64,000 nucleotides of DNA from a virus. The stretch is from the IMG/VR virus record IMGVR_UViG_3300021960_009431, one strand, 5' to 3'. The translations under genes were made by a program, and so were the position numbers. This document shows, piece by piece, positions 55,290 through 64,000 of the stretch. Position 1 is the first letter of the stretch; every line of letters begins with the position of its first letter. The notes under the pieces were generated by a model. That model saw only the letters and a program-made list of their open reading frames with translations. It was not told the DNA's origin and searched no databases.

Positions 55290-57004
55290 TGATCTATTTT
55301 AAATATCTTCGTTGGAAGAATTTTCTTTCAACTGGAAATGTATTTACTGAATTAAAATTAGATAAAGCAAAATCTACTCTTGTAGTAGGTGAAAATGGTG
55401 CTGGTAAAAGTACTATGCTCGACGCTTTGTCCTTTGCTCTGTATGGTAAACCGTTTCGTAAAATTAATAAACCTCAACTTATGAATACTATTAACCAAAA
55501 AGGTTTAGAAGTGCAAGTTGAGTTTCGTGTTGGTAAAAAAGAATATATGATCGTACGAGGTGTCAAACCTAATAAGTTTGAGATTTATGAGAACGATAAA
55601 ATTATTAATCAAGATGCAGCAGCTAGAGATTATCAAGAAGTCTTAGAAAAAAATATTCTTAAACTTAATCATAAATCCTTTAGTCAGATTGTTGTACTAG
55701 GTAGTAGTACGTTTGTTCCTTTTATGCAACTTCCTTCAATGCATCGTAGAGAAGTTATTGAAGACTTACTTGATATTCAAATTTTCTCTACGATGAACAC
55801 TCTTTTAAAAGATAAAGTAAATAATAATAAATCTGAAATTCTTGATAACGACTATAATATTAATCTTGCTGAAGAAAAGATTAAAATGCAGCACCAGTAT
55901 ATTAATGAGTTAAAGCAAAACACTGAGAAGCGCGTTAATGAAGCTAAGGTAAAAGTAGTCAAAGCAGAAAAAGAAAAACAAGAATATAATACGTTAATAG
56001 ATACTCTTCAAGATCAAGTTAATATATTACAAGAAAGTATTTCTGATTTTGAAAGCTTAACTAAAAAGAAATCTAAGGTAGAGCAGCTAGAATATAAACT
56101 TCAAGAAAAAATTAAAAAGCTTGAACATGATATTGAGTTCTATCAAGATCATGATAACTGTCCTGTGTGTAAGCAAGACATCGAAGAAGACTTTAAAGAT
56201 CAGACGATTGAAGAAAAAGAAACTTCATTAAATGAGACTGTAAATGGTTTTAATCAGTTAAGAGAAGAATGGCAATCGATTAATAATCGTATACAAGAAA
56301 TCTCTGAAGTACAGTTAGATATTTCGTCTAAGCAGAATGAAATTAGCAGTAACAATTCTCACATCAATGCTTTAAATAAACTTATTGACAGTATTAATGA
56401 AGATATTACCAGTATTGATGATAGCGATAAATCAGATAAGTCAGATAAAAAGAAATTAGAGACATTAGAAAAAGCTTTAGTTAAACTACAATCTTATAAA
56501 GAAGAAATAATAAATGAGCGATCTGTTTTAGATATTGCATCGATGATTCTTAAAGATTCTGGTATTAAAACTCGTATTATTAAACAATATATTCCAGTAA
56601 TGAATAAACTTATTAATAAGTATCTTGCTGCAATGGATTTCTTTGTTGACTTTCAGCTTGATGAAAACTTTAATGAAACTATAAAGAGTAGGTTCCGAGA
56701 TGTATTTTCCTATGCTTCCTTCTCAGAAGGTGAAAAGATGCGTATTGATCTTGCGTTATTGTTTACTTGGAGAGCTGTATCAAAGTTACGTAACTCAGTA
56801 AGTACTAATCTTCTTATTATGGATGAAGTATTTGACTCATCTTTAGATAATACTGGTACAGAAGAGTTTTTAAAGATACTAAATGACTTGACTTCTGATA
56901 CAAATGTCTTTATAATAAGTCATAAAGGTGATCAACTCTATGATAAATTTCATAGTGTTATTCGTTTTGAGAAGCATAAAAACTTTAGTAGGGTTGCAGC
57001 ATGA
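55289..57004 (+). CDS. gp46: Recombination endonuclease subunit gp46 (Rad50-like)
   Basis: GENGAGKST, CPVC hook, FSEGEKMRID, DEVFDSSLD motifs. Confidence 0.95.
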   Translation: MIYFKYLRWKNFLSTGNVFTELKLDKAKSTLVVGENGAGKSTMLDALSFALYGKPFRKINKPQLMNTINQKGLEVQVEFRVGKKEYMIVRGVKPNKFEIYENDKIINQDAAARDYQEVLEKNILKLNHKSFSQIVVLGSSTFVPFMQLPSMHRREVIEDLLDIQIFSTMNTLLKDKVNNNKSEILDNDYNINLAEEKIKMQHQYINELKQNTEKRVNEAKVKVVKAEKEKQEYNTLIDTLQDQVNILQESISDFESLTKKKSKVEQLEYKLQEKIKKLEHDIEFYQDHDNCPVCKQDIEEDFKDQTIEEKETSLNETVNGFNQLREEWQSINNRIQEISEVQLDISSKQNEISSNNSHINALNKLIDSINEDITSIDDSDKSDKSDKKKLETLEKALVKLQSYKEEIINERSVLDIASMILKDSGIKTRIIKQYIPVMNKLINKYLAAMDFFVDFQLDENFNETIKSRFRDVFSYASFSEGEKMRIDLALLFTWRAVSKLRNSVSTNLLIMDEVFDSSLDNTGTEEFLKILNDLTSDTNVFIISHKGDQLYDKFHSVIRFEKHKNFSRVAA

Positions 57005-57537
57005 TAATGAATTTAGTGAAATCAAATGATCCAATATTAAAACAGAAATGTGAAATGTTTGATTTTGATAATCCACCGATGGATCCATTAAAATTAGCGC
57101 TTGACTTAAGAGAGAGTATGATATATCATAAGGGTATTGGTTTATCTGCTTGTCAGGTTGGTATACCATATAGAGTATTTGTTGCTGGTGATCCAGGTGA
57201 TATTGATAATATTAAAGTATTTTTTAATCCGAGAGTAGTTGATGCATCGGATCAAAAAGTTTTGATAGAGGAAGGATGCTTATCTTTCCCTGGTTTGTTT
57301 ATGAAGGTAAAACGTCCAGCCACAGTACGACTTCGATTTGCTGATCCTAGAGGTACAATAGCTACAGAGACATATGAAGGTGTACCAGCACGAGCTATTC
57401 TACATGAATATGATCATATGGATGGTATATTGTTTCATAATCGTGCTAATTCATATCATAGAGATCAAGCAAAAAAACAGAAAAAAAAGTTAGATAGGCT
57501 TCGCGAAGCTAATAAAAAGAAGCTAAGTAAAGTATAA
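57001..57537 (+). CDS. def: Peptide deformylase
   Basis: GIGLSACQVG, EGCLSFPG, HEYDH motifs. Confidence 0.93.
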   Translation: MIMNLVKSNDPILKQKCEMFDFDNPPMDPLKLALDLRESMIYHKGIGLSACQVGIPYRVFVAGDPGDIDNIKVFFNPRVVDASDQKVLIEEGCLSFPGLFMKVKRPATVRLRFADPRGTIATETYEGVPARAILHEYDHMDGILFHNRANSYHRDQAKKQKKKLDRLREANKKKLSKV

Positions 57538-57539
57538 TC

Positions 57540-57575
57540 AGTAGTGCCCTTCCACTGCTTAACTAAAACTAGGAG
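57540..57575 (+). promoter_or_regulatory. Riboswitch-like stem-loop/pseudoknot leader of queE
   Basis: AGTAGTG/CACTGCT stem; loop CCCTTC complementary to SD GGAG; A-rich linker TAACTAAAACTA. Confidence 0.4.
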
Positions 57576-57581
57576 TTCTAA

Positions 57582-58523
57582 ATGTCCCCGAAAGAATATA
57601 CGTATTCTGAGATCTTTCATTCTATTCAAGGTGAAGGTCATTATACCGGTGTTCCAACTGCATGGATAAGATTTTTCTTATGTAATTTACAGTGCGATGG
57701 ATTCGGTCAAGATCATCCAACTAAACCAGAAACCTGGGATCTACCATATAAAGATTTTGATTCTCACTCTGTAACAAGAGTAGAGGATTTACCGGTATGG
57801 TCAAAGGGTTGTGATTCTTCTTATACCTGGTCTAAAAAGTTTAGACATTTAATGGGTAAAGCTACAGGAGCTGAACTAGCTCAAAAGCTAGTCAATATTA
57901 TGAAGAATGAGCATAACCCTGAAGGTTGGTTCTTACACCCGTTATCTAAACAGCATAACCATTTATGTATTACAGGTGGTGAACCTCTAATGCGTCATGC
58001 TCAATTGGCGTTTATAGACATATATAAAACTTTAGAAGAAATGCCAGGTGGTCCATTACCTGATACTCATTTTTACTCTCCTAATAATTTACCTGCAAGT
58101 ATAACTTGGGAAACTAATGGTACTCAACCATTAACAGAAGATTTCAAAAATCTTGTAGATAGTCCTTTATTTAGACCTGAAGCTTTCTTTTCCGTATCTC
58201 CTAAACTCTGGACTGTAGCAGGAGAACAACGAAAGAAAGCAATTAAACCTGAAACTGTAAAAGAATATTATGATATTTCTAAAAACGGTCAGCTTAAATT
58301 TGTAGTAGGTCAAACTAAAGAAGAGTGGGAAGAGTTAGACGAAGTAGTTAATTTGTTTAGAGACGCAGGAGTTAAATATCCTGTATGGATCATGCCTGTA
58401 GGAGCAAGATCAGAAGAGCAAGAAGCCACTGCTGGTGATGTAGCTAAAATGGCATTCGAAAGAGGTTATAATGTCTCTGGAAGAATGCATGTTTATTTAT
58501 TTGGAAACGCAATAGGAACATAA
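57582..58523 (+). CDS. queE: 7-carboxy-7-deazaguanine synthase (radical SAM)
   Basis: SEIFHSIQGEG, CNLQC...GCDS, ITGGEP, ETNGT, SVSPKL motifs. Confidence 0.92.
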   Translation: MSPKEYTYSEIFHSIQGEGHYTGVPTAWIRFFLCNLQCDGFGQDHPTKPETWDLPYKDFDSHSVTRVEDLPVWSKGCDSSYTWSKKFRHLMGKATGAELAQKLVNIMKNEHNPEGWFLHPLSKQHNHLCITGGEPLMRHAQLAFIDIYKTLEEMPGGPLPDTHFYSPNNLPASITWETNGTQPLTEDFKNLVDSPLFRPEAFFSVSPKLWTVAGEQRKKAIKPETVKEYYDISKNGQLKFVVGQTKEEWEELDEVVNLFRDAGVKYPVWIMPVGARSEEQEATAGDVAKMAFERGYNVSGRMHVYLFGNAIGT

Positions 58524-58524
58524 C

Positions 58525-58968
58525 ATGGCATATTATAGTACAAAAACTTACGGACATAATATCGGGCTTTCTGCTGTCTTTAGACAACCTAAAGCTCATT
58601 CTCATTGTAAATTTTTACATGGGTATAGCTTAGCATTTAAGTTTACTTTTGGTGCTAGTAATTTAGACGAAAGAAACTGGGTAGTAGATTTTGGAGGTTT
58701 AAAAACTCTAAAAAAATGGCTAGAAGACAGCTTTGATCATAAACTAGTATTAGATAGAGATGATCCAATGATGTATAAGTTTGCTGAATTAGAAAATGCT
58801 GGTCTAGCTGAGATTACTGTTTTAGATGGTGTGGGTGTAGAAAGGTTTGCTGAGCATGCATGGAAGTTTGCAGACGATCTTGTAACAGAAGCTTCCGATG
58901 GTAGATGTTGGTGTGAGTCAGTAGAATGTTCAGAACATGGCGCTAATAGTGGAATATATAGGAGATAA
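58525..58968 (+). CDS. queD: 6-carboxytetrahydropterin synthase
   Basis: HCKFLHGY, WVVDFG, FDH motifs. Confidence 0.9.
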   Translation: MAYYSTKTYGHNIGLSAVFRQPKAHSHCKFLHGYSLAFKFTFGASNLDERNWVVDFGGLKTLKKWLEDSFDHKLVLDRDDPMMYKFAELENAGLAEITVLDGVGVERFAEHAWKFADDLVTEASDGRCWCESVECSEHGANSGIYRR

Positions 58969-58970
58969 AA

Positions 58971-59654
58971 ATGAAGCACAGCGAAGTTATTAAACAACGT
59001 ATTGAAGAAGCTGGTATTAGATATTGGGCTGGTGATAACATTAGTGATGTATTACAAGATGGTGATAAAGAATTAATTATTGAAGAAGCTACAAAAGCTT
59101 TCGAAAATGTGCTTGACTCTTTACTAATAGATCGTTATAATGATCCTAATAGTATGGATACAGGTAGACGGTTAGCTAAGATGTATGTAAATGAAGTCAT
59201 GAGCGGAAGATATAATATAATGCCTAAAGTATCAGCTTTTCCTAATGAAGGAGAAGATCGATATACAGGTATGCTAGTTATACGTTCTGAAGTAAAAAGT
59301 ATGTGTTCTCACCATCATCAACCAGTTACAGGGGTTGCTTATATTGGTGTTATACCTGGTCAAAAAGTAATAGGACTTTCTAAGTATACTCGTATTGCTC
59401 AATGGTGTGCACGTAGAGGTACATTGCAGGAAGAACTATGTAATGACATTGCTCGTGAGATCCGTAAAGCTACTGACAGTGAAGATGTAGCTGTTTATGT
59501 ACAAGCTACTCACGGGTGCTGTGAGAATAGAGGTATTATGGCTCATAGTTCTCTAACTCAAACTACTGTATTACATGGAGAATTTAATAACGGAGATGTT
59601 AAAAAAGAGTTTTTTGATAATATAAAATTACAGCAGGAGTTTGCTCCAAGATGA
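58971..59654 (+). CDS. folE: GTP cyclohydrolase I
   Basis: SMCSHH, GLSKY.R, LQEE, HGC...RG motifs. Confidence 0.95.
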   Translation: MKHSEVIKQRIEEAGIRYWAGDNISDVLQDGDKELIIEEATKAFENVLDSLLIDRYNDPNSMDTGRRLAKMYVNEVMSGRYNIMPKVSAFPNEGEDRYTGMLVIRSEVKSMCSHHHQPVTGVAYIGVIPGQKVIGLSKYTRIAQWCARRGTLQEELCNDIAREIRKATDSEDVAVYVQATHGCCENRGIMAHSSLTQTTVLHGEFNNGDVKKEFFDNIKLQQEFAPR

Positions 59655-59812
59655 ATCATATGAATGTATCTTTTGTAAAAAGTGGTATACGAATAGGAGC
59701 TTGTATTTTAGGAATAACACTTCAAAGTATAACAGCGTTATGTTTTTTCTTGCTATTTGCCGAAATATTAGGTATAATAGAAGAAGTTGTAGATAAACGT
59801 GAGGAGAAATAA
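59651..59812 (+). CDS. 53-aa membrane protein (not in ORF track)
   Basis: MNHMNVSFVKSGIRIGACILGITLQSITALCFFLLFAEILGIIEEVVDKREEK*; coupled by ATGA and TAATG overlaps on both sides. Confidence 0.75.
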   Translation: MNHMNVSFVKSGIRIGACILGITLQSITALCFFLLFAEILGIIEEVVDKREEK

Positions 59813-60594
59813 TGAAAATAGCGCATGAAGCTCCATTAAGTATCTTTGATCAAGTACAGGAGTTAACTGATTATGATTATGCTCTTGTACATCTATTTGA
59901 AGAGAATGATGATTATTTTAATAAATTTATAGAAGCAAGAGATAAAGGTAGAGAGATCATTCTTGATAATTCTATCTTTGAACTCGGTACAGCATGGGAT
60001 AGTGATAGATTTGCTTACTGGGTAGAGAAACTAAAACCTGATTGGTATATTGTACCTGATGTATTAGATAATAAAGACGCTACAATTGATAGCTTTGATG
60101 CGTTCATAGAAAAGTATCCTAACTTACCTGGAAAACGTATTGCTGTCGCTCAAGGTACTACTTATGAAGAGTTAGTTGATTGCTACGAATATCTTGCATA
60201 TCATAATAAAGTAGATAAGATTGGTTTATCATTTAACCATCCGTTTTTTCAAGAATTAAATTTGCATAACAAATACTTTAATATGATGTTTGGAAGACAG
60301 ATGACTCTAACATCAATGCTAGAAGATAAAATTATTAATAAAGATAAACCGCATCATCTATTAGGATGTGGTCTACCTCAGGAGTTTAGAGACTATGTAG
60401 ACTATAAATGGATTGATTCTATTGATACATCTAATCCTGTTATGCACGGTATTAAAAATGTACGTTACTTAGAGCATGGTTTAGAAGATAAAGAATCAGT
60501 AAAAATGTTTACTATAATGGACGATAATGTTCTTGCATCTTGGGACGATATAGCTTATAATATAGAGAAGTTTAGAGGTTTCTGTAGTGGATAG
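59812..60594 (+). CDS. Divergent TGT-fold 7-deazaguanine transglycosylase (DpdA3-like)
   Basis: ILDNSIFELG, PDVL, VAQG, HLLG and SIDTS align with TGT/DpdA DSG-F, PD, VQG, HxxG and D-S motifs; embedded in the que cluster. Confidence 0.65.
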   Translation: MKIAHEAPLSIFDQVQELTDYDYALVHLFEENDDYFNKFIEARDKGREIILDNSIFELGTAWDSDRFAYWVEKLKPDWYIVPDVLDNKDATIDSFDAFIEKYPNLPGKRIAVAQGTTYEELVDCYEYLAYHNKVDKIGLSFNHPFFQELNLHNKYFNMMFGRQMTLTSMLEDKIINKDKPHHLLGCGLPQEFRDYVDYKWIDSIDTSNPVMHGIKNVRYLEHGLEDKESVKMFTIMDDNVLASWDDIAYNIEKFRGFCSG

Positions 60595-61117
60595 ATGGAT
60601 TGCTTTATTTTCTCAAACTGGTTCTGAAATAGTAGATATAGCAAATCAGCTGGGAGTTTGGCCAGATCGTATTTTTACTGATAATAAAAATATAGAAGAT
60701 ATAAACGTTAAGCTTAAAAATAAAATAGTGGTAATGTCTCATAATGGTATAGAAGAGACACTACAATATACAAGTGATATGACAGGTAATACTTTAGTTA
60801 CTCTTCATGGTTATCTACGTATATTAAGTCCTAAAACATGTAATGTAGGTCTATCAATTTATAACGGTCATCCAGCTTATATCTCTAAACATCCAGAACT
60901 TAAAGGAAAAGATCCTCAAGAGATGATTTGGAGTGATAGAGATAATTATGATTTTATTGGCTCTACGGTTCATAGAGTGATTGCTGACGTAGATGCTGGA
61001 GCTATTGAAGAAGAAAGTATAAGGAAAAATACTTGCAATTCTAAAGAAGAGCTGTATAATACATTAAGAAAAACATCTTTAGATGCTTGGATTAATTTTT
61101 TAAAGGATAAATTATGA
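60587..61117 (+). CDS. PurN-like formyltransferase (putative preQ1 formyltransferase, DpdN-like)
   Basis: ALFSQTGS, LHGYLRIL, NGHPA, GSTVH.V...VDAG formyl-THF transferase motifs. Confidence 0.8.
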   Translation: MDRWIALFSQTGSEIVDIANQLGVWPDRIFTDNKNIEDINVKLKNKIVVMSHNGIEETLQYTSDMTGNTLVTLHGYLRILSPKTCNVGLSIYNGHPAYISKHPELKGKDPQEMIWSDRDNYDFIGSTVHRVIADVDAGAIEEESIRKNTCNSKEELYNTLRKTSLDAWINFLKDKL

Positions 61118-61449
61118 GTAAAAAAGATAAAAGCTTTTTTGAAACGTTGACTGTGTCTGTAGATAATACTGATGTTGAACCTACAATTACTTTAGGTGAA
61201 ATTGATGAAGATGGTGAGCCTCGTCCTAATCATTATAGTCAAGATCCTAATTCTATAGAATGTATTGAAGTTATTAAGCAGTTGTGTAAGGAACATCAGA
61301 ACGATCCTTTTACTGACTATAATAGATATCAAGCGTTCAAATATCTTTGGCGTATGGGTAAGAAAGATGATGTATTGTTTGATTTAAATAAAGCTATTAC
61401 ATTTTTGGAGTTTGCAAGGAAAGCATTAGAGGATGAACGTAATGGATGA
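61114..61449 (+). CDS. DUF3310 / T7 gp1.7-like nucleotide kinase domain protein
   Basis: PNHY...IECIEVI...KYLWR.GKK...DLNKA..FL motif. Confidence 0.8.
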   Translation: MSKKDKSFFETLTVSVDNTDVEPTITLGEIDEDGEPRPNHYSQDPNSIECIEVIKQLCKEHQNDPFTDYNRYQAFKYLWRMGKKDDVLFDLNKAITFLEFARKALEDERNG

Positions 61450-62374
61450 AATTGAAAAAATTGCTAGTAAGGTATTAGGTAAAACGTCTGACGGATCTAC
61501 TATGATGCGTTATGAAACACCAGATGATATAGATGCTTCTTTACTCGTAGGCGTACCTAGACATCTCAATCGCACTGGTTACGGTATTAGTAATGACGGT
61601 TCAGAGTTATTTCATGGTATTGATGCTTGGAACGGTTATGAGTTTAGTTGTTTATTAGATAATGGATTTCCTGTTTCAGGTCTTCTTAAATGGAACTACC
61701 CTTCAGATTCAGAATGTATTGTTGAATCTAAATCTGCTAAGTTATATCTCAACTCTTTTAATATGGTTAAGATGGGGAAAACAGTTGAAGAAGCTATAGC
61801 TAATGTAGAACAGAAAATTGATGAAGATATGGCACCTGTACTTGGTATTAGTGATGAATGGGACTTAAATGTATGTCTACATATGAATGAGGATCATACA
61901 TCACGTCCTATTTCAGGAACATTTATTCCACTTGAAGAAATTGTAGATGTAGCATCTATTGAATTTGATCATTATAATGAAGATCCAGAAATTATTAAAT
62001 TAGAAGTAAATGAAGATTATAGAGATATTAAATATCAATCTAAATCTCTTCGCTCTAATTGTCGAGTAACTAACCAGCCTGACTGGGGTGATATCTTTAT
62101 TCATATAAAAGGTGATCGTATTCCTACACCTGAATCTTTATTGCAATATATTGTAAGTATGCGTAAAGAAAATCATTTCCATGAGGAAATATGTGAGTGT
62201 GTTTATAAACGTTTACATGATCTTTGTGGTCCAGAAGAATTAGTGGTTGCATGTCTATATACACGTCGTGGTGGTATTGATATTAATCCAGTAAGAGCAA
62301 GTAGTCCTCAATTACTTACTCAACATCCGATCACCGACGCATTTAATATGTGTGATAAAACTATGCGTCAGTAA
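61433..62374 (+). CDS. queF: NADPH-dependent preQ0 reductase QueF, bimodular type (start may be 61442)
   Basis: IVESKS.KLYLNSF, LRSNCRVTNQPDWG, FHEE, YTRRGGIDINP.R motifs. Confidence 0.93.
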   Translation: MNVMDEIEKIASKVLGKTSDGSTMMRYETPDDIDASLLVGVPRHLNRTGYGISNDGSELFHGIDAWNGYEFSCLLDNGFPVSGLLKWNYPSDSECIVESKSAKLYLNSFNMVKMGKTVEEAIANVEQKIDEDMAPVLGISDEWDLNVCLHMNEDHTSRPISGTFIPLEEIVDVASIEFDHYNEDPEIIKLEVNEDYRDIKYQSKSLRSNCRVTNQPDWGDIFIHIKGDRIPTPESLLQYIVSMRKENHFHEEICECVYKRLHDLCGPEELVVACLYTRRGGIDINPVRASSPQLLTQHPITDAFNMCDKTMRQ

Positions 62375-62419
62375 GTGGTTCATGAAAGCTAACCACTTTA
62401 AAAAACATACCGCTTTCAT
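62373..62419 (+). promoter_or_regulatory. preQ1-I-like riboswitch / H-type pseudoknot upstream of queC
   Basis: AGTGG-TTCATGAAAGCTAA-CCACT-TTAAAAAACAT; loop ATGAAAGC pairs with GCTTTCAT next to the GGAG RBS. Confidence 0.55.
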
Positions 62420-62432
62420 ATTGGAGAACTAA

Positions 62433-63248
62433 ATGAAAAATATCGTTGTATCATTATCTGGAGGAATGGACTCCTCTACTCTACTGTTGCGCGCTATCAA
62501 AGAGGTAGGTGCAAGTAATGTAACAGCTTTGTCATTTGATTATGGACAGAAGCACGTTTGTGAATTAGAACGTGCTAAAGAAATAGTAAACTATCTTGCA
62601 GTACATGGGCATACAATCAGGTATCAAGTTATTAAACTTGATGGTATTACTGAGTTGTTATCTTCAGCCCTTGTATCTGGAGGTGCAGATGTGCCTGAAG
62701 GTCATTATGCAGAAGATAATATGAAGCAGACGGTTGTACCTAATCGTAATAAAATCTTTGCTTCATTAGTTCAAGCTGTTGCTTTATCTGTAGTAAAAAA
62801 TACTGAACAAGAAACAGCTATTGCATTAGGTATTCATGCCGGTGATCATGCAATTTACCCTGATTGTCGTCAAGAGTTTCGTGATGCAGATGATGAAGCA
62901 TTTCGAATTGGTAACTGGGATGCTGATAAAGTAACTTATTTTACTCCTTATCTTGAAGGTGATAAGTTCGATATTCTAAAAGACGGTGAAGTACTTTGCG
63001 AGCAGCTAGGTTTAGACTTTGATGAAGTTTATTCTCGTACAAACACCTCATACAAACCTTTACAGATTGATGGAGTGTGGTTCTCTGATTATAAGAGTTC
63101 TTCTTCTGTCGAACGTCTGGAAGCGTTTATTAAACTAGGACGTCCTGATCCTGTCGCATATGCTGACGAAACAGGTCCTGTTCCTTATGAGATAGCTAGA
63201 GCACATGCTCAGCTAGTACTCAAGGAATATCAAAGTAACGCAGCATGA
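62433..63248 (+). CDS. queC: 7-cyano-7-deazaguanine synthase
   Basis: SLSGGMDS PP-loop, FDYGQKH, VPNRN, YPDCR motifs. Confidence 0.93.
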   Translation: MKNIVVSLSGGMDSSTLLLRAIKEVGASNVTALSFDYGQKHVCELERAKEIVNYLAVHGHTIRYQVIKLDGITELLSSALVSGGADVPEGHYAEDNMKQTVVPNRNKIFASLVQAVALSVVKNTEQETAIALGIHAGDHAIYPDCRQEFRDADDEAFRIGNWDADKVTYFTPYLEGDKFDILKDGEVLCEQLGLDFDEVYSRTNTSYKPLQIDGVWFSDYKSSSSVERLEAFIKLGRPDPVAYADETGPVPYEIARAHAQLVLKEYQSNAA

Positions 63249-63259
63249 AAGGATAATAA

Positions 63260-63868
63260 ATGCTGAAACAAATGTTTAATCTCGAAGCAGTAGATCGATC
63301 TCTATTGTGGAAACTGGTACTTACACATCTAGTAATCATTGCTGCTTCAAACTATATTGTTCAATTTAGTGGTATGATTTTTGGTTACCACTTTACATGG
63401 GCAATGTTTATCTTCCCACTTGTAGTGATTGCTACTGACTTAACTATCCGATTAACTAATAAGTATCAAGCTCGAATGGTAGTAGCTATTGCTTTTATTC
63501 CAGCTATTTTTATTAGCTCTTATATTGCTACTCCAATGATTGGATTAGCTAGTGCTCTTGCATATCTAGTAGGTCAGTTATTTGATGTATCTGTCTTTCA
63601 GAAAATTAGAGAAGCATTTACAGAACGTTGGTGGGTAGCACCTGCAGTATCAACGTTTGTTGCTAATATTGTTGATACCTATCTATTCTTCTGGGCAGCA
63701 TTCGCATATGGCAATGATGAGTTTATGGCAGCTAATTGGTTAGAAATTGCTACTGTAGATGTAATCTTTAAAATTATCGTATCATTTGTAATGTTCTTAC
63801 CTATATACGGTGTACTACTTCGATATCTACGTACACGTATGGAAGTAGGTACAGGTGGAACTTATTAA
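63260..63868 (+). CDS. yhhQ: preQ0/preQ1 transporter (VUT/YhhQ family)
   Basis: IIAASNYIVQ, TWAMFIFP...ATDLT.R, ASALAYL.GQ.FDV.VF, DTY.FF motifs; multiple TM helices. Confidence 0.9.
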   Translation: MLKQMFNLEAVDRSLLWKLVLTHLVIIAASNYIVQFSGMIFGYHFTWAMFIFPLVVIATDLTIRLTNKYQARMVVAIAFIPAIFISSYIATPMIGLASALAYLVGQLFDVSVFQKIREAFTERWWVAPAVSTFVANIVDTYLFFWAAFAYGNDEFMAANWLEIATVDVIFKIIVSFVMFLPIYGVLLRYLRTRMEVGTGGTY

Positions 63869-63883
63869 AAATAAGGTTATATA

Positions 63884-64000
63884 ATGACAATGATTAATAT
63901 CGGAGGCAGTAATGCTGCCTCCTCTTTAACTAACGTTCAAGAAAAAGACGTTCAACCTAATGCAGTTGATTTGCGGGTTGATAAAATTCTAAAGATTCTC
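63884..64000 (+). CDS. dCTP deaminase/dUTPase-family protein, N-terminus (truncated by window)
   Basis: MTMINIGGSNAASSLTNVQEKDVQPNAVDLRVDKI; QPxxxDLR motif. Confidence 0.65.
   Translation, partial: MTMINIGGSNAASSLTNVQEKDVQPNAVDLRVDKILKIL

Follow-up and report, generated by a model that had tools for sequence, protein, structure and literature searches.

A phage gene cluster predicted to put formyl-preQ1 into DNA in place of guanine, possibly by base exchange at the nucleotide level

The viral DNA record IMGVR_UViG_3300021960_009431, of which we analyzed a stretch of 64,000 nucleotides (nt; the whole stretch is called the window), carries a 7-deazaguanine gene cluster from position 57582 to 64000. 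At its center are genes for DpdA3, a small relative of tRNA-guanine transglycosylase (TGT), and for DpdN, a PurN-type enzyme. As judged by sequence comparison, this module is a further member of the published DpdA3/DpdN system for formylated dPreQ1 (fdPreQ1) DNA, and the phage very probably carries fdPreQ1 in place of most or all guanine (G). From the genes beside DpdA3 we infer that the modified base most likely enters the DNA by a pre-replicative route, at the level of the nucleoside or nucleotide; we give this reading a probability of about one half. The genes on which the argument turns are the following.

59812..60594, plus strand: DpdA3, a minimal TGT-superfamily TIM barrel of 260 amino acids (aa) and putative base-exchange enzyme; full-length match to the DpdA of phage vB_FspM_immuto_2-6A
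60587..61117, plus strand: DpdN, a predicted PurN-type formyltransferase of 176 aa; match to the DpdN of the same phage and to PF00551
61114..61449, plus strand: stand-alone DUF3310 protein of 111 aa between DpdN and QueF; PF11753 at 36.8 bits (cut-off 24)

The window DpdA3 was 53.6% identical over 260 aa to the DpdA of vB_FspM_immuto_2-6A, a phage of Flavobacterium (hereafter immuto; protein immuto26A_65, E 1e-83), about 41% identical to its counterparts in the Campylobacter CP220 group (gp056, E about 1e-48) and 26% identical to that of Cellulophaga phage phiST (CGPG_00065, E 3e-6). These are the phages by which Cui, Hutinet et al. defined DpdA3 (PMC10516641). A translated search found relatives in 30 of 50,697 phage records. 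The protein matched PHROG 19058 (E 9.8e-54) and had no Pfam or NCBIfam match. Both its sequence and the structure model described below indicate that it is a member of the DpdA3 subfamily.

The window DpdN aligned with the immuto DpdN over its full length (41% identity over 176 aa, E 3e-42) and scored 31.1 bits with PF00551 (Formyl_trans_N; cut-off 26.1). Its YNGHP and DVDAG motifs align with INIHH and ELDQG of the formyl-tetrahydrofolate enzyme 3w7b, showing that the catalytic Asn-x-His and Asp residues are kept. The order of genes is also shared: immuto has a MazG-like gene, a small open reading frame (ORF), DpdA3, a second small ORF, DpdN, a gene annotated as thymidylate kinase and QueF, and the window has DpdA3, DpdN, DUF3310 and QueF. 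Immuto DNA contains fdPreQ1 and no detectable deoxyguanosine (dG), as determined by liquid chromatography with ultraviolet detection and tandem mass spectrometry against a synthetic standard; formyl transfer by DpdN is a prediction in that paper as well (PMC10516641). A preliminary description of the window, made from the letters alone, had linked DpdN and DpdA3 to a Flavobacterium phage and had predicted fdPreQ1 DNA. The link was correct (PMC10516641), and the prediction is supported by the two full-length identities and the common order DpdA3-DpdN-kinase-QueF. It is this orthology and synteny with immuto that make the fdPreQ1 product likely.

A different end product would result if the PurN-like enzyme transferred a group other than formyl or used another acceptor, leaving dPreQ1 or another N-acyl derivative in the DNA. 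The activity of DpdN is predicted only, and related loci exchange DpdN for other enzymes (in locus L006, a GNAT protein and an amidoligase-like protein). We nevertheless consider a different product improbable, given the 41% full-length identity to the DpdN of the sole phage with proven fdPreQ1 and the conserved formyltransferase motif. Locus L006 (1913-5766 of IMGVR_UViG_3300010348_000788) encodes a DpdA3 of 48% identity and lacks DpdN; between DpdA3 and QueF it carries an amidoligase-like protein (337 aa), an AAA_28 kinase and a GNAT acetyltransferase. Its product may be an undescribed N-acyl derivative of dPreQ1.

The fold of the TGT-like protein had been named beforehand as a point on which the assignment could fail. 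An AlphaFold2 model of DpdA3, based on an alignment with 65 diverse relatives, reached a mean predicted local distance difference test score (pLDDT) of 97.8, and its succession of strands and helices is that of an eight-fold barrel. In a Foldseek search of the Protein Data Bank, the best 50 matches were all tRNA-guanine transglycosylases (E about 1e-7). VIA-align gave Z 17.8 with the archaeosine TGT 1j2b_A (root-mean-square deviation 2.9 Å over 231 residues) and Z 17.6 with the Zymomonas enzyme. The model is thus a TGT-type TIM barrel. The 231 aligned residues of the 260 extend across TGT residues 40-360, which leaves about 90 TGT residues without a DpdA3 counterpart.

Two invariant Asp residues were found at putative catalytic positions. 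D205, in the motif DTSNP, aligns with IDSTTP of Salmonella DpdA (7UI4), the Asp of which is at chain position 276, and would be the counterpart of the reported nucleophile Asp256; this call is mainly motif-based, without a superposed active site, since the offset from 276 to 256 assumes a 20-residue tag and the paper states 22 residues including the linker. D52 (LDNS) aligns, in a motif alignment only, with LDSG of the phage 9g DpdA1 at the general acid/base position. At the sequence level, the matches of DpdA3 to solved structures were nonsignificant (7ui4, E 0.37 for the protein alone and E 0.064 for the profile) and were used for motif alignment only. No conserved Cys cluster or Zn site (CxCx2Cx22H) was detected across 65 members of the DpdA3 family. 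The preliminary description had also noted no Zn site and had suggested, partly on this ground, base exchange at the nucleotide level rather than on DNA; the observation held but does not support that suggestion, because the 9g DpdA1 likewise lacks CxCxxC. The isoelectric points are 4.7 for the window DpdA3 and 5.6 for the 9g enzyme. Charge and Zn site were rejected as substrate discriminators, since the DNA-modifying 9g DpdA1 is similarly acidic and has no CxCxxC.

We also considered whether the module serves RNA, that is, whether it raises the supply of queuosine precursor or modifies host or phage tRNA and so tunes translation during infection. The que genes and YhhQ do form a normal queuosine-precursor pathway, and the TGT relatives are tRNA enzymes. 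Still, the nearest characterized DpdA3 relatives are found in phages with fully modified DNA, not tRNA; DpdN and the kinase slot described below have no role in queuosine synthesis; and DpdA3 lacks the roughly 90 residues of the TGT insertions. We therefore regard a function in RNA as very unlikely, and DNA as the probable destination of the modified base.

To compare the surroundings of DpdA3, ORFs were called in 84 loci and labeled by iterated hidden Markov model searches, for which the seeds were taken from the window, from immuto and from two metagenomic loci. Loci were counted as evaluable after collapsing DpdA3 at 95% identity and if they had enough downstream sequence, which left 57.

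Kinase-type gene beside DpdA3: 56 of 57 loci (AAA_28 in 35, DUF3310 in 21)
DpdN, adjacent to DpdA3: 55 of 57 loci
QueF: 55 of 57 loci
MazG-like gene in the locus: 31 of 57 loci
Small phosphoribosyltransferase in the locus: 19 of 57 loci

The MazG count is a lower bound, because the MazG profile missed the annotated MazG-like gene of the phiST cluster. Between the window DUF3310 and the AAA_28-type kinase of immuto no homology was detected. Two unrelated families thus occupy the same slot, a case of nonorthologous displacement indicating that a function, rather than a particular gene, is required there. In CP220, the gene after DpdA3 encodes an AAA_28 kinase homologue (32% identity, E 9e-20; profile E 3e-44), and the gene before it an HD-domain and P-loop fusion. 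In four clusters of the DpdA1 type (Escherichia phage 9g, Vibrio CA8, Rhizobium RHEph04 and Mycobacterium Calamitous), neither annotation nor three profiles revealed a kinase or a nucleoside triphosphate (NTP) pyrophosphatase. In the Calamitous locus (L091, 1-1829), the DpdA-like gene is overlapped at its start by a gene for a protein with a ParB-like nuclease domain, recalling DpdB.

Some loci depart from this arrangement. The only evaluable locus without a kinase-type neighbor (L081, 6952-8838) has DpdA3 followed by a DCD/dUTPase-like protein and a 211-aa protein, and neither DpdN nor QueF. In a lineage from sample 3300045988 (L039, L040, L041, L044, L061, L062 and L065), DUF3310, DpdA3 and DpdN are directly 5' of genes for a DNA polymerase of family A and an SNF2 helicase, and no que genes were found within 7 kb.

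A model of the AAA_28 P-loop protein (pLDDT 89) resembled deoxynucleoside kinases, thymidylate kinase and NadR in its riboside kinase domain, and the top matches listed included no DNA-dependent ATPase. The window DUF3310 protein was 34% identical to residues 120-189 of T7 gp1.7 (E 3e-5) and had no relative among solved structures. A passage in PMC11897194, citing Tran et al. 2012, states that gp1.7 phosphorylates dTMP and dGMP. Of the gp1.7-like kinase domain claimed earlier for the window, the DUF3310 domain is present, but not the full gp1.7 architecture.

DpdA3 is also physically joined to its neighbors in some proteins. It is fused to DpdN in P0205, P0238 and P0276, to QueF in P0273 and P0274, and probably to DUF3310 in P0260 (hhalign probability 75%, E 2.4e-5). 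This last link was made by profile comparison only; pairwise BLAST gave no match of DUF3310 to the C-terminus of P0260 or to that of P0252. A predicted complex of DpdA3 with DUF3310 scored 0.48 (best control, 0.01), with contacts that agreed by at least 30% between runs and a partner pLDDT of at least 55. Of the calibration cases, 58 of 80 solved complexes and 2 of 110 mismatched pairs attained the mark, and scores of at most 0.60 comprised only 7 of the 80 and both mismatches, so that the model hints weakly at a contact. Among other DpdA3 genes, P0275 (634 aa), P0137 (475 aa) and P0125 (586 aa) include cases that carry an insertion of the intein or LAGLIDADG type (PF03161, PF14890) or end in a NUMOD3 tail, and P0125 has an N-terminal extension of 317 aa without a family assignment.

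The proposed route starts from the common pathway. FolE, QueD, QueE and QueC convert GTP to preQ0, and QueF converts preQ0 to preQ1; YhhQ can import preQ0 or preQ1 made outside the cell. DpdA3 would then exchange guanine for the 7-deazaguanine base on deoxyguanosine or dGMP, and not on DNA. DpdN would formylate the 7-aminomethyl group of the resulting nucleoside or nucleotide with 10-formyl-tetrahydrofolate as donor; a preQ1 nucleotide would resemble the PurN substrate glycinamide ribonucleotide, which has an amine on a ribose 5-phosphate. The DUF3310 protein, or in other lineages its substitute with a deoxynucleoside-kinase fold, would phosphorylate the formylated product. Host kinases would complete the triphosphate, and the phage DNA polymerase would insert fdPreQ1 opposite C. 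A deoxynucleoside triphosphate (dNTP)-pool enzyme may lower the competing dGTP; in the window this would be the DCD/dUTPase-like protein and, elsewhere, a MazG-like or HD protein.

Several observations favor this nucleotide route: the kinase slot, the NTP-hydrolase companions, the contrast with DpdA1, and the resemblance to the PurN substrate. Two published observations point the same way. Replacement of G was complete in all three tested DpdA3 phages and amounted to 0.1-30% in other DpdA subfamilies, and the authors did not succeed in getting DpdA3 to function in their E. coli model (PMC10516641). The nucleotide-level exchange suggested in the preliminary description thus gains comparative support from the kinase slot, the fusions and the DpdA1 controls; this support does not settle the route, as the published proposal is post-replicative.

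Other points weigh against a nucleotide route. To our knowledge, no enzyme of the TGT superfamily acts on a nucleoside or nucleotide, all characterized ones acting on a polynucleotide. That DpdA3 is small, acidic and devoid of a Zn motif is uninformative about its substrate, since the 9g DpdA1 shares these traits. The window DUF3310 protein covers only the C-terminal ~70 residues of gp1.7 (196 aa), and its relatives have 77-122 aa. No MazG-like gene was seen in the window, and the role of the DCD/dUTPase-like gene may be confined to pyrimidine metabolism. The comparison covered the 80 loci most similar to the query, which are therefore phylogenetically related samples. Finally, the discoverers of DpdA3 proposed post-replicative insertion for all 7-deazaguanine DNA modifications (PMC10516641), and bacterial DpdA requires the ATPase partner DpdB for DNA (PMC10164549). 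An NTP-using neighbor is thus not diagnostic of a nucleotide route, because DpdB helps DpdA on DNA.

Following the published route, the same product would arise after replication with dGTP: DpdA3 would swap each G in DNA for preQ1, and DpdN would formylate it there. The DUF3310 or AAA_28 protein would be a general deoxynucleoside monophosphate or deoxynucleoside kinase that travels with the module, or a DpdB-like NTP-using helper on DNA. We take this possibility seriously and rate it somewhat below an even chance. DpdA3 belongs to the TGT/DpdA superfamily, whose characterized members all act on polynucleotides (PMC10164549), and the probable DpdA3-DUF3310 fusion and the weakly predicted contact suit a helper as well as a metabolic role. 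Against insertion into DNA, activity of DpdA3 on DNA has never been shown, the E. coli test having failed (PMC10516641). The fold of the slot protein is that of a small-molecule kinase (deoxynucleoside kinases, TMPK, NadR) and not that of a ParB-like protein or DNA-dependent ATPase. The DpdA1 clusters checked had no kinase-type gene, one of them having a ParB-like gene instead, and hitchhiking leaves unexplained why two unrelated kinase-type families occupy the same slot in 56 of 57 loci and in CP220.

On balance, we prefer pre-replicative exchange. In its widest form, the proposal is that DpdA3, as the first enzyme of the TGT fold to do so, swaps the base on free deoxynucleosides or deoxynucleotides, in a metabolic unit with DpdN and a dedicated kinase, and that all 7-deazaguanine phages with complete replacement (the immuto, CP220 and phiST types and hundreds of metagenome contigs) act before replication and under feedback by preQ1-like riboswitches. 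We advance this wider version tentatively, as close to an even bet.

The rest of the cluster supplies the base. Its 11 genes, all on the plus strand between 57582 and 64000, are queE, queD, folE, the 53-aa ORF, DpdA3, DpdN, DUF3310, queF, queC, yhhQ and the start of the DCD/dUTPase-like gene, with spacers, from queE on, of 1, 2, -4, -1, -8, -4, -17, 58, 11 and 15 nt. The gene calls and coordinates of the preliminary description were borne out by Pfam, NCBIfam and PHROG searches, and its claim of tight coupling agrees with junctions that mostly overlap or abut (spacers of -17 to 58 nt). The genes besides the three listed above are:

57582..58523, plus strand: QueE-like radical S-adenosylmethionine (SAM) enzyme (7-carboxy-7-deazaguanine synthase), 313 aa; PHROG 2076 over the full length, E 1.8e-51
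58525..58968, plus strand: QueD (6-carboxytetrahydropterin synthase), 147 aa; PTPS PF01242, E 1.3e-15; PHROG 2389, E 3.4e-41
58971..59654, plus strand: FolE (GTP cyclohydrolase I), 227 aa; PF01227, E 9.6e-39; NF006824, E 1.9e-41
59651..59812, plus strand: 53-aa hydrophobic protein of a conserved family; seen in translation, with family members in related loci
61433..62374, plus strand: QueF, two-domain NADPH-dependent preQ0 reductase, 313 aa; TIGR03138, E 1.6e-65; PF14819 and PF14489
62433..63248, plus strand: QueC (7-cyano-7-deazaguanine synthase), 271 aa; PF06508, E 2.1e-36
63260..63868, plus strand: YhhQ/Vut_1 queuosine-precursor transporter, 202 aa; TIGR00697 at 110.5 bits (cut-off 50.95); NF008406, E 1.9e-57
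63884..64000, plus strand: DCD/dUTPase-fold protein, first 39 codons, cut by the window end; N-terminus matches proteins of ~165 aa in 24 related loci

The preQ1 pathway is complete, the FolE, QueD, QueE and QueC families and that of QueF all being present and intact. QueF has its ESKSAK motif at residue 98 and QueC its PP-loop SGGMDS at residue 9. FolE, QueD, QueC and QueF scored above the Pfam cut-offs; QueE was recognized over its full length by PHROG 2076 only, with NCBIfam QueE models covering only the N-terminus and Pfam Radical_SAM below its cut-off. All five enzymes remained below NCBIfam equivalog cut-offs, as expected for diverged phage copies. YhhQ also matched PF02592 (80.1 bits, cut-off 27.2). 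The combination of synthesis and a transporter, regarded earlier as unusual, is not unique: YhhQ was also found in the que cluster of one Vibrio phage record and as 15 ORFs in related loci. A full-length relative of the DCD/dUTPase-like ORF (L010:4865-5362) matched PF22769, "dCTP deaminase-like" (E 5.4e-16).

The family of the 53-aa protein comprises 28 ORFs, including that of the window, whose place within the DpdA3 clusters varies. The family is marked by the motif H..[IV]SF[IV]KS..RI, by a hydrophobic segment and by AE[IV].GI.EELV at the C-terminus; it matched nothing in Pfam, NCBIfam or PHROG, and is missing from the close relative L005. Other proteins occur between QueF and QueC. Two loci (L043, 7381-8725; L078, 6874-8227) have a TauD-family dioxygenase (314-318 aa), a small membrane protein and a 79-aa protein inserted there, and the dioxygenase may perform a further modification step. 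Loci with an AAA_28 kinase (L022, 4608-4802; L046, 9762-10022; L068, 3175-3369; and others) encode a protein of 64-86 aa with the core KYGVTTERTDIDL.GWLQHLQEEL.DA.VY, which sits where the lineage of the window has the queC leader RNA. It had no credible Pfam match (a spurious HOOK coiled-coil hit reached 17.5 bits, cut-off 35).

Two leader RNAs were found in the cluster.

57540..57575, plus strand: queE leader RNA, a candidate compact preQ1-I-like pseudoknot; covariation in the 11-locus alignment A3
62374..62417, plus strand: queC leader RNA, a preQ1-I-like H-type pseudoknot; Rfam RF00522 below threshold; covariation in alignment A2

The queC leader lies in the 58-nt spacer and would form P1 (62374-62380/62391-62397, 7 base pairs [bp]) and P2 (62384-62389/62412-62417, 6 bp) with an A-rich linker between them. 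It scored 21.4 bits with the preQ1-I model RF00522 (gathering score 39; E 0.012 in 121 nt), and the same site also scored in L003 and L005. In A2 (15 loci), 98.5% of the cells are paired, four pairs change on both sides, and none of 500 shuffles matched this. The divergent leader of L068 has different sequences in both helices, which by eye can still pair; the count tool scored it as partly unpaired because its P2 register is one column off in the alignment.

The queE leader, in a 44-nt spacer, has a 7-bp stem (57540-57546/57553-57559), the invariant loop CCCUUC and the tail UUAACUAAAACUAGGAG; CCU of the loop can pair with AGG of the Shine-Dalgarno sequence (57571-57575). In A3 (11 loci), 99% of the cells are paired and three stem pairs change on both sides, a covariation score reached by 0 of 500 shuffles. 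The three P2 pairs are invariant and hence give no covariation signal either way. The motif GTGCCCTTCCAC..AACTAGGAG was present in 18 loci, in 17 of them directly 5' of a called QueE; in the other, L043, no called gene followed within 40 nt. No Rfam match was obtained for this leader at E≤1, and at gathering thresholds Rfam reported no riboswitch in the cluster. Of the RNA regulators proposed earlier, two conserved and covarying leaders thus exist, and neither reaches the Rfam preQ1-I threshold. Since the sequences counted are related and also served for reading the structures, the structures are suggestive and not proof. The leaders would probably shut off translation of queE and queC when a 7-deazaguanine intermediate, the putative ligand, builds up.

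The phage backbone is T4-like, as proposed previously: the window encodes T4-type structural, helicase and gp46/47 proteins. Upstream of the cluster, PHROG names include tail sheath, portal, scaffold, major capsid, helicase and a gp46/47-type nuclease pair, and the G+C content of the window is ~34%. The closest cultured relatives of the major capsid protein are from Stenotrophomonas phage DLP_6 (68%) and from Methylophilales phage Melnitz and Pelagibacter phage Mosig (65%), and Synechococcus myoviruses are also among them; the 30 cultured-phage records that matched DpdA3 include none of the closest capsid relatives. A permuted two-piece transfer-messenger RNA gene of the alphaproteobacterial type is located at 1301-1604 on the plus strand (RF01849, 117.9 bits; RF04321, 123.5 bits) and is the sole basis for the putative alphaproteobacterial host named in the preliminary description. 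A scan of 56900-64000 for sigma-70 promoters and terminators gave signals at chance level. A peptide deformylase (PDF) gene at 57001-57537 directly precedes the queE leader, and 19 PDF-family ORFs were found in related loci, mostly directly upstream of QueE. The deformylase was considered as a candidate pathway member and was left out of the proposed route.

How common such modules may be was estimated from the abundance of DpdA3. At 90% clustering, 3,897 proteins were related to it at E≤0.001. An exhaustive profile-free search of 1.84 billion representatives yielded 1,739 clusters (50% identity) at E≤0.001, of which 261 were at E≤1e-30, and relatives are encoded in at least 571 IMG/VR stretches. 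Four phages with DpdN were known to the source paper (PMC10516641). Because the DpdA3 family is far commoner than these four phages of 2023, formyl-preQ1 DNA may be widespread among aquatic phages. This would matter for restriction evasion, for how environmental viral DNA is sequenced and cloned, and for what infection costs the host in GTP and folate. The kinase slot, the fusion proteins and the difference from DpdA1 clusters narrow the question to whether complete replacement of G takes place before or after replication. If it is pre-replicative, the use of nucleosides or nucleotides by a TGT-fold enzyme would be chemistry not seen before and would offer access to 7-deaza-dGTP analogues. The two conserved leaders suggest that phages regulate a DNA modification pathway by riboswitch-like elements that current models miss.

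Compared with known systems, both leaders resemble the preQ1-I riboswitch (RF00522) in that they combine a short P1 hairpin with an A-rich tail, have a pseudoknot close to the ribosome binding site and lie upstream of que genes. They differ in that the queC leader has a longer P1 and a 6-bp P2 far downstream and scores 21-24 bits against a threshold of 39, and in that the queE leader has a loop of merely 6 nt. With the immuto module, the window shares the core order of DpdA3, DpdN, kinase-type gene and QueF and a co-encoded full preQ1 pathway. The immuto module adjoins a family A polymerase, whereas the window belongs to a T4-like myovirus with a different backbone; the slot holds an AAA_28 P-loop kinase in immuto and DUF3310 in the window. 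No MazG-like or phosphoribosyltransferase gene was seen in the window, which has in addition YhhQ, the DCD/dUTPase-like gene and the two structured leaders, and its product is predicted from the genes.

For CP220 (dADG) and phiST (dDG), which have DpdA3 of the same subfamily, complete replacement of G has been reported (PMC10516641). They resemble the window in having a nucleotide enzyme beside or near DpdA3, but they lack QueF and DpdN; their pathway stops earlier or branches, and the final base is different. Bacterial DpdA with DpdB and the phage enzymes DpdA1 and DpdA2 have a TGT-type barrel, two catalytic Asp residues and co-encoded preQ0 genes, as does the window; bacterial DpdA differs from DpdA3 by its Zn site, four insertions and its need for the ParB-like ATPase DpdB (PMC10164549). 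In these systems, post-replicative insertion of preQ0, G+ or preQ1 modifies 0.1-30% of G, some of it at defined motifs.

Pre-replicative replacement is known from the hydroxymethyl-dC of T4, which uses a dCTPase, a dCMP hydroxymethylase and a deoxynucleoside monophosphate kinase, and from S-2L-type Z genomes with PurZ, MazZ and DatZ. Taken as a whole, the DpdA3 family follows the same logic of parts: it has an enzyme that modifies, a kinase for nucleotides or nucleosides and a pyrophosphatase or phosphohydrolase for NTPs, and one base is replaced completely. In contrast to T4 and S-2L, the modifying enzyme would, in our proposal, be a TGT-fold transglycosylase working on a nucleoside or nucleotide, which would be unprecedented.

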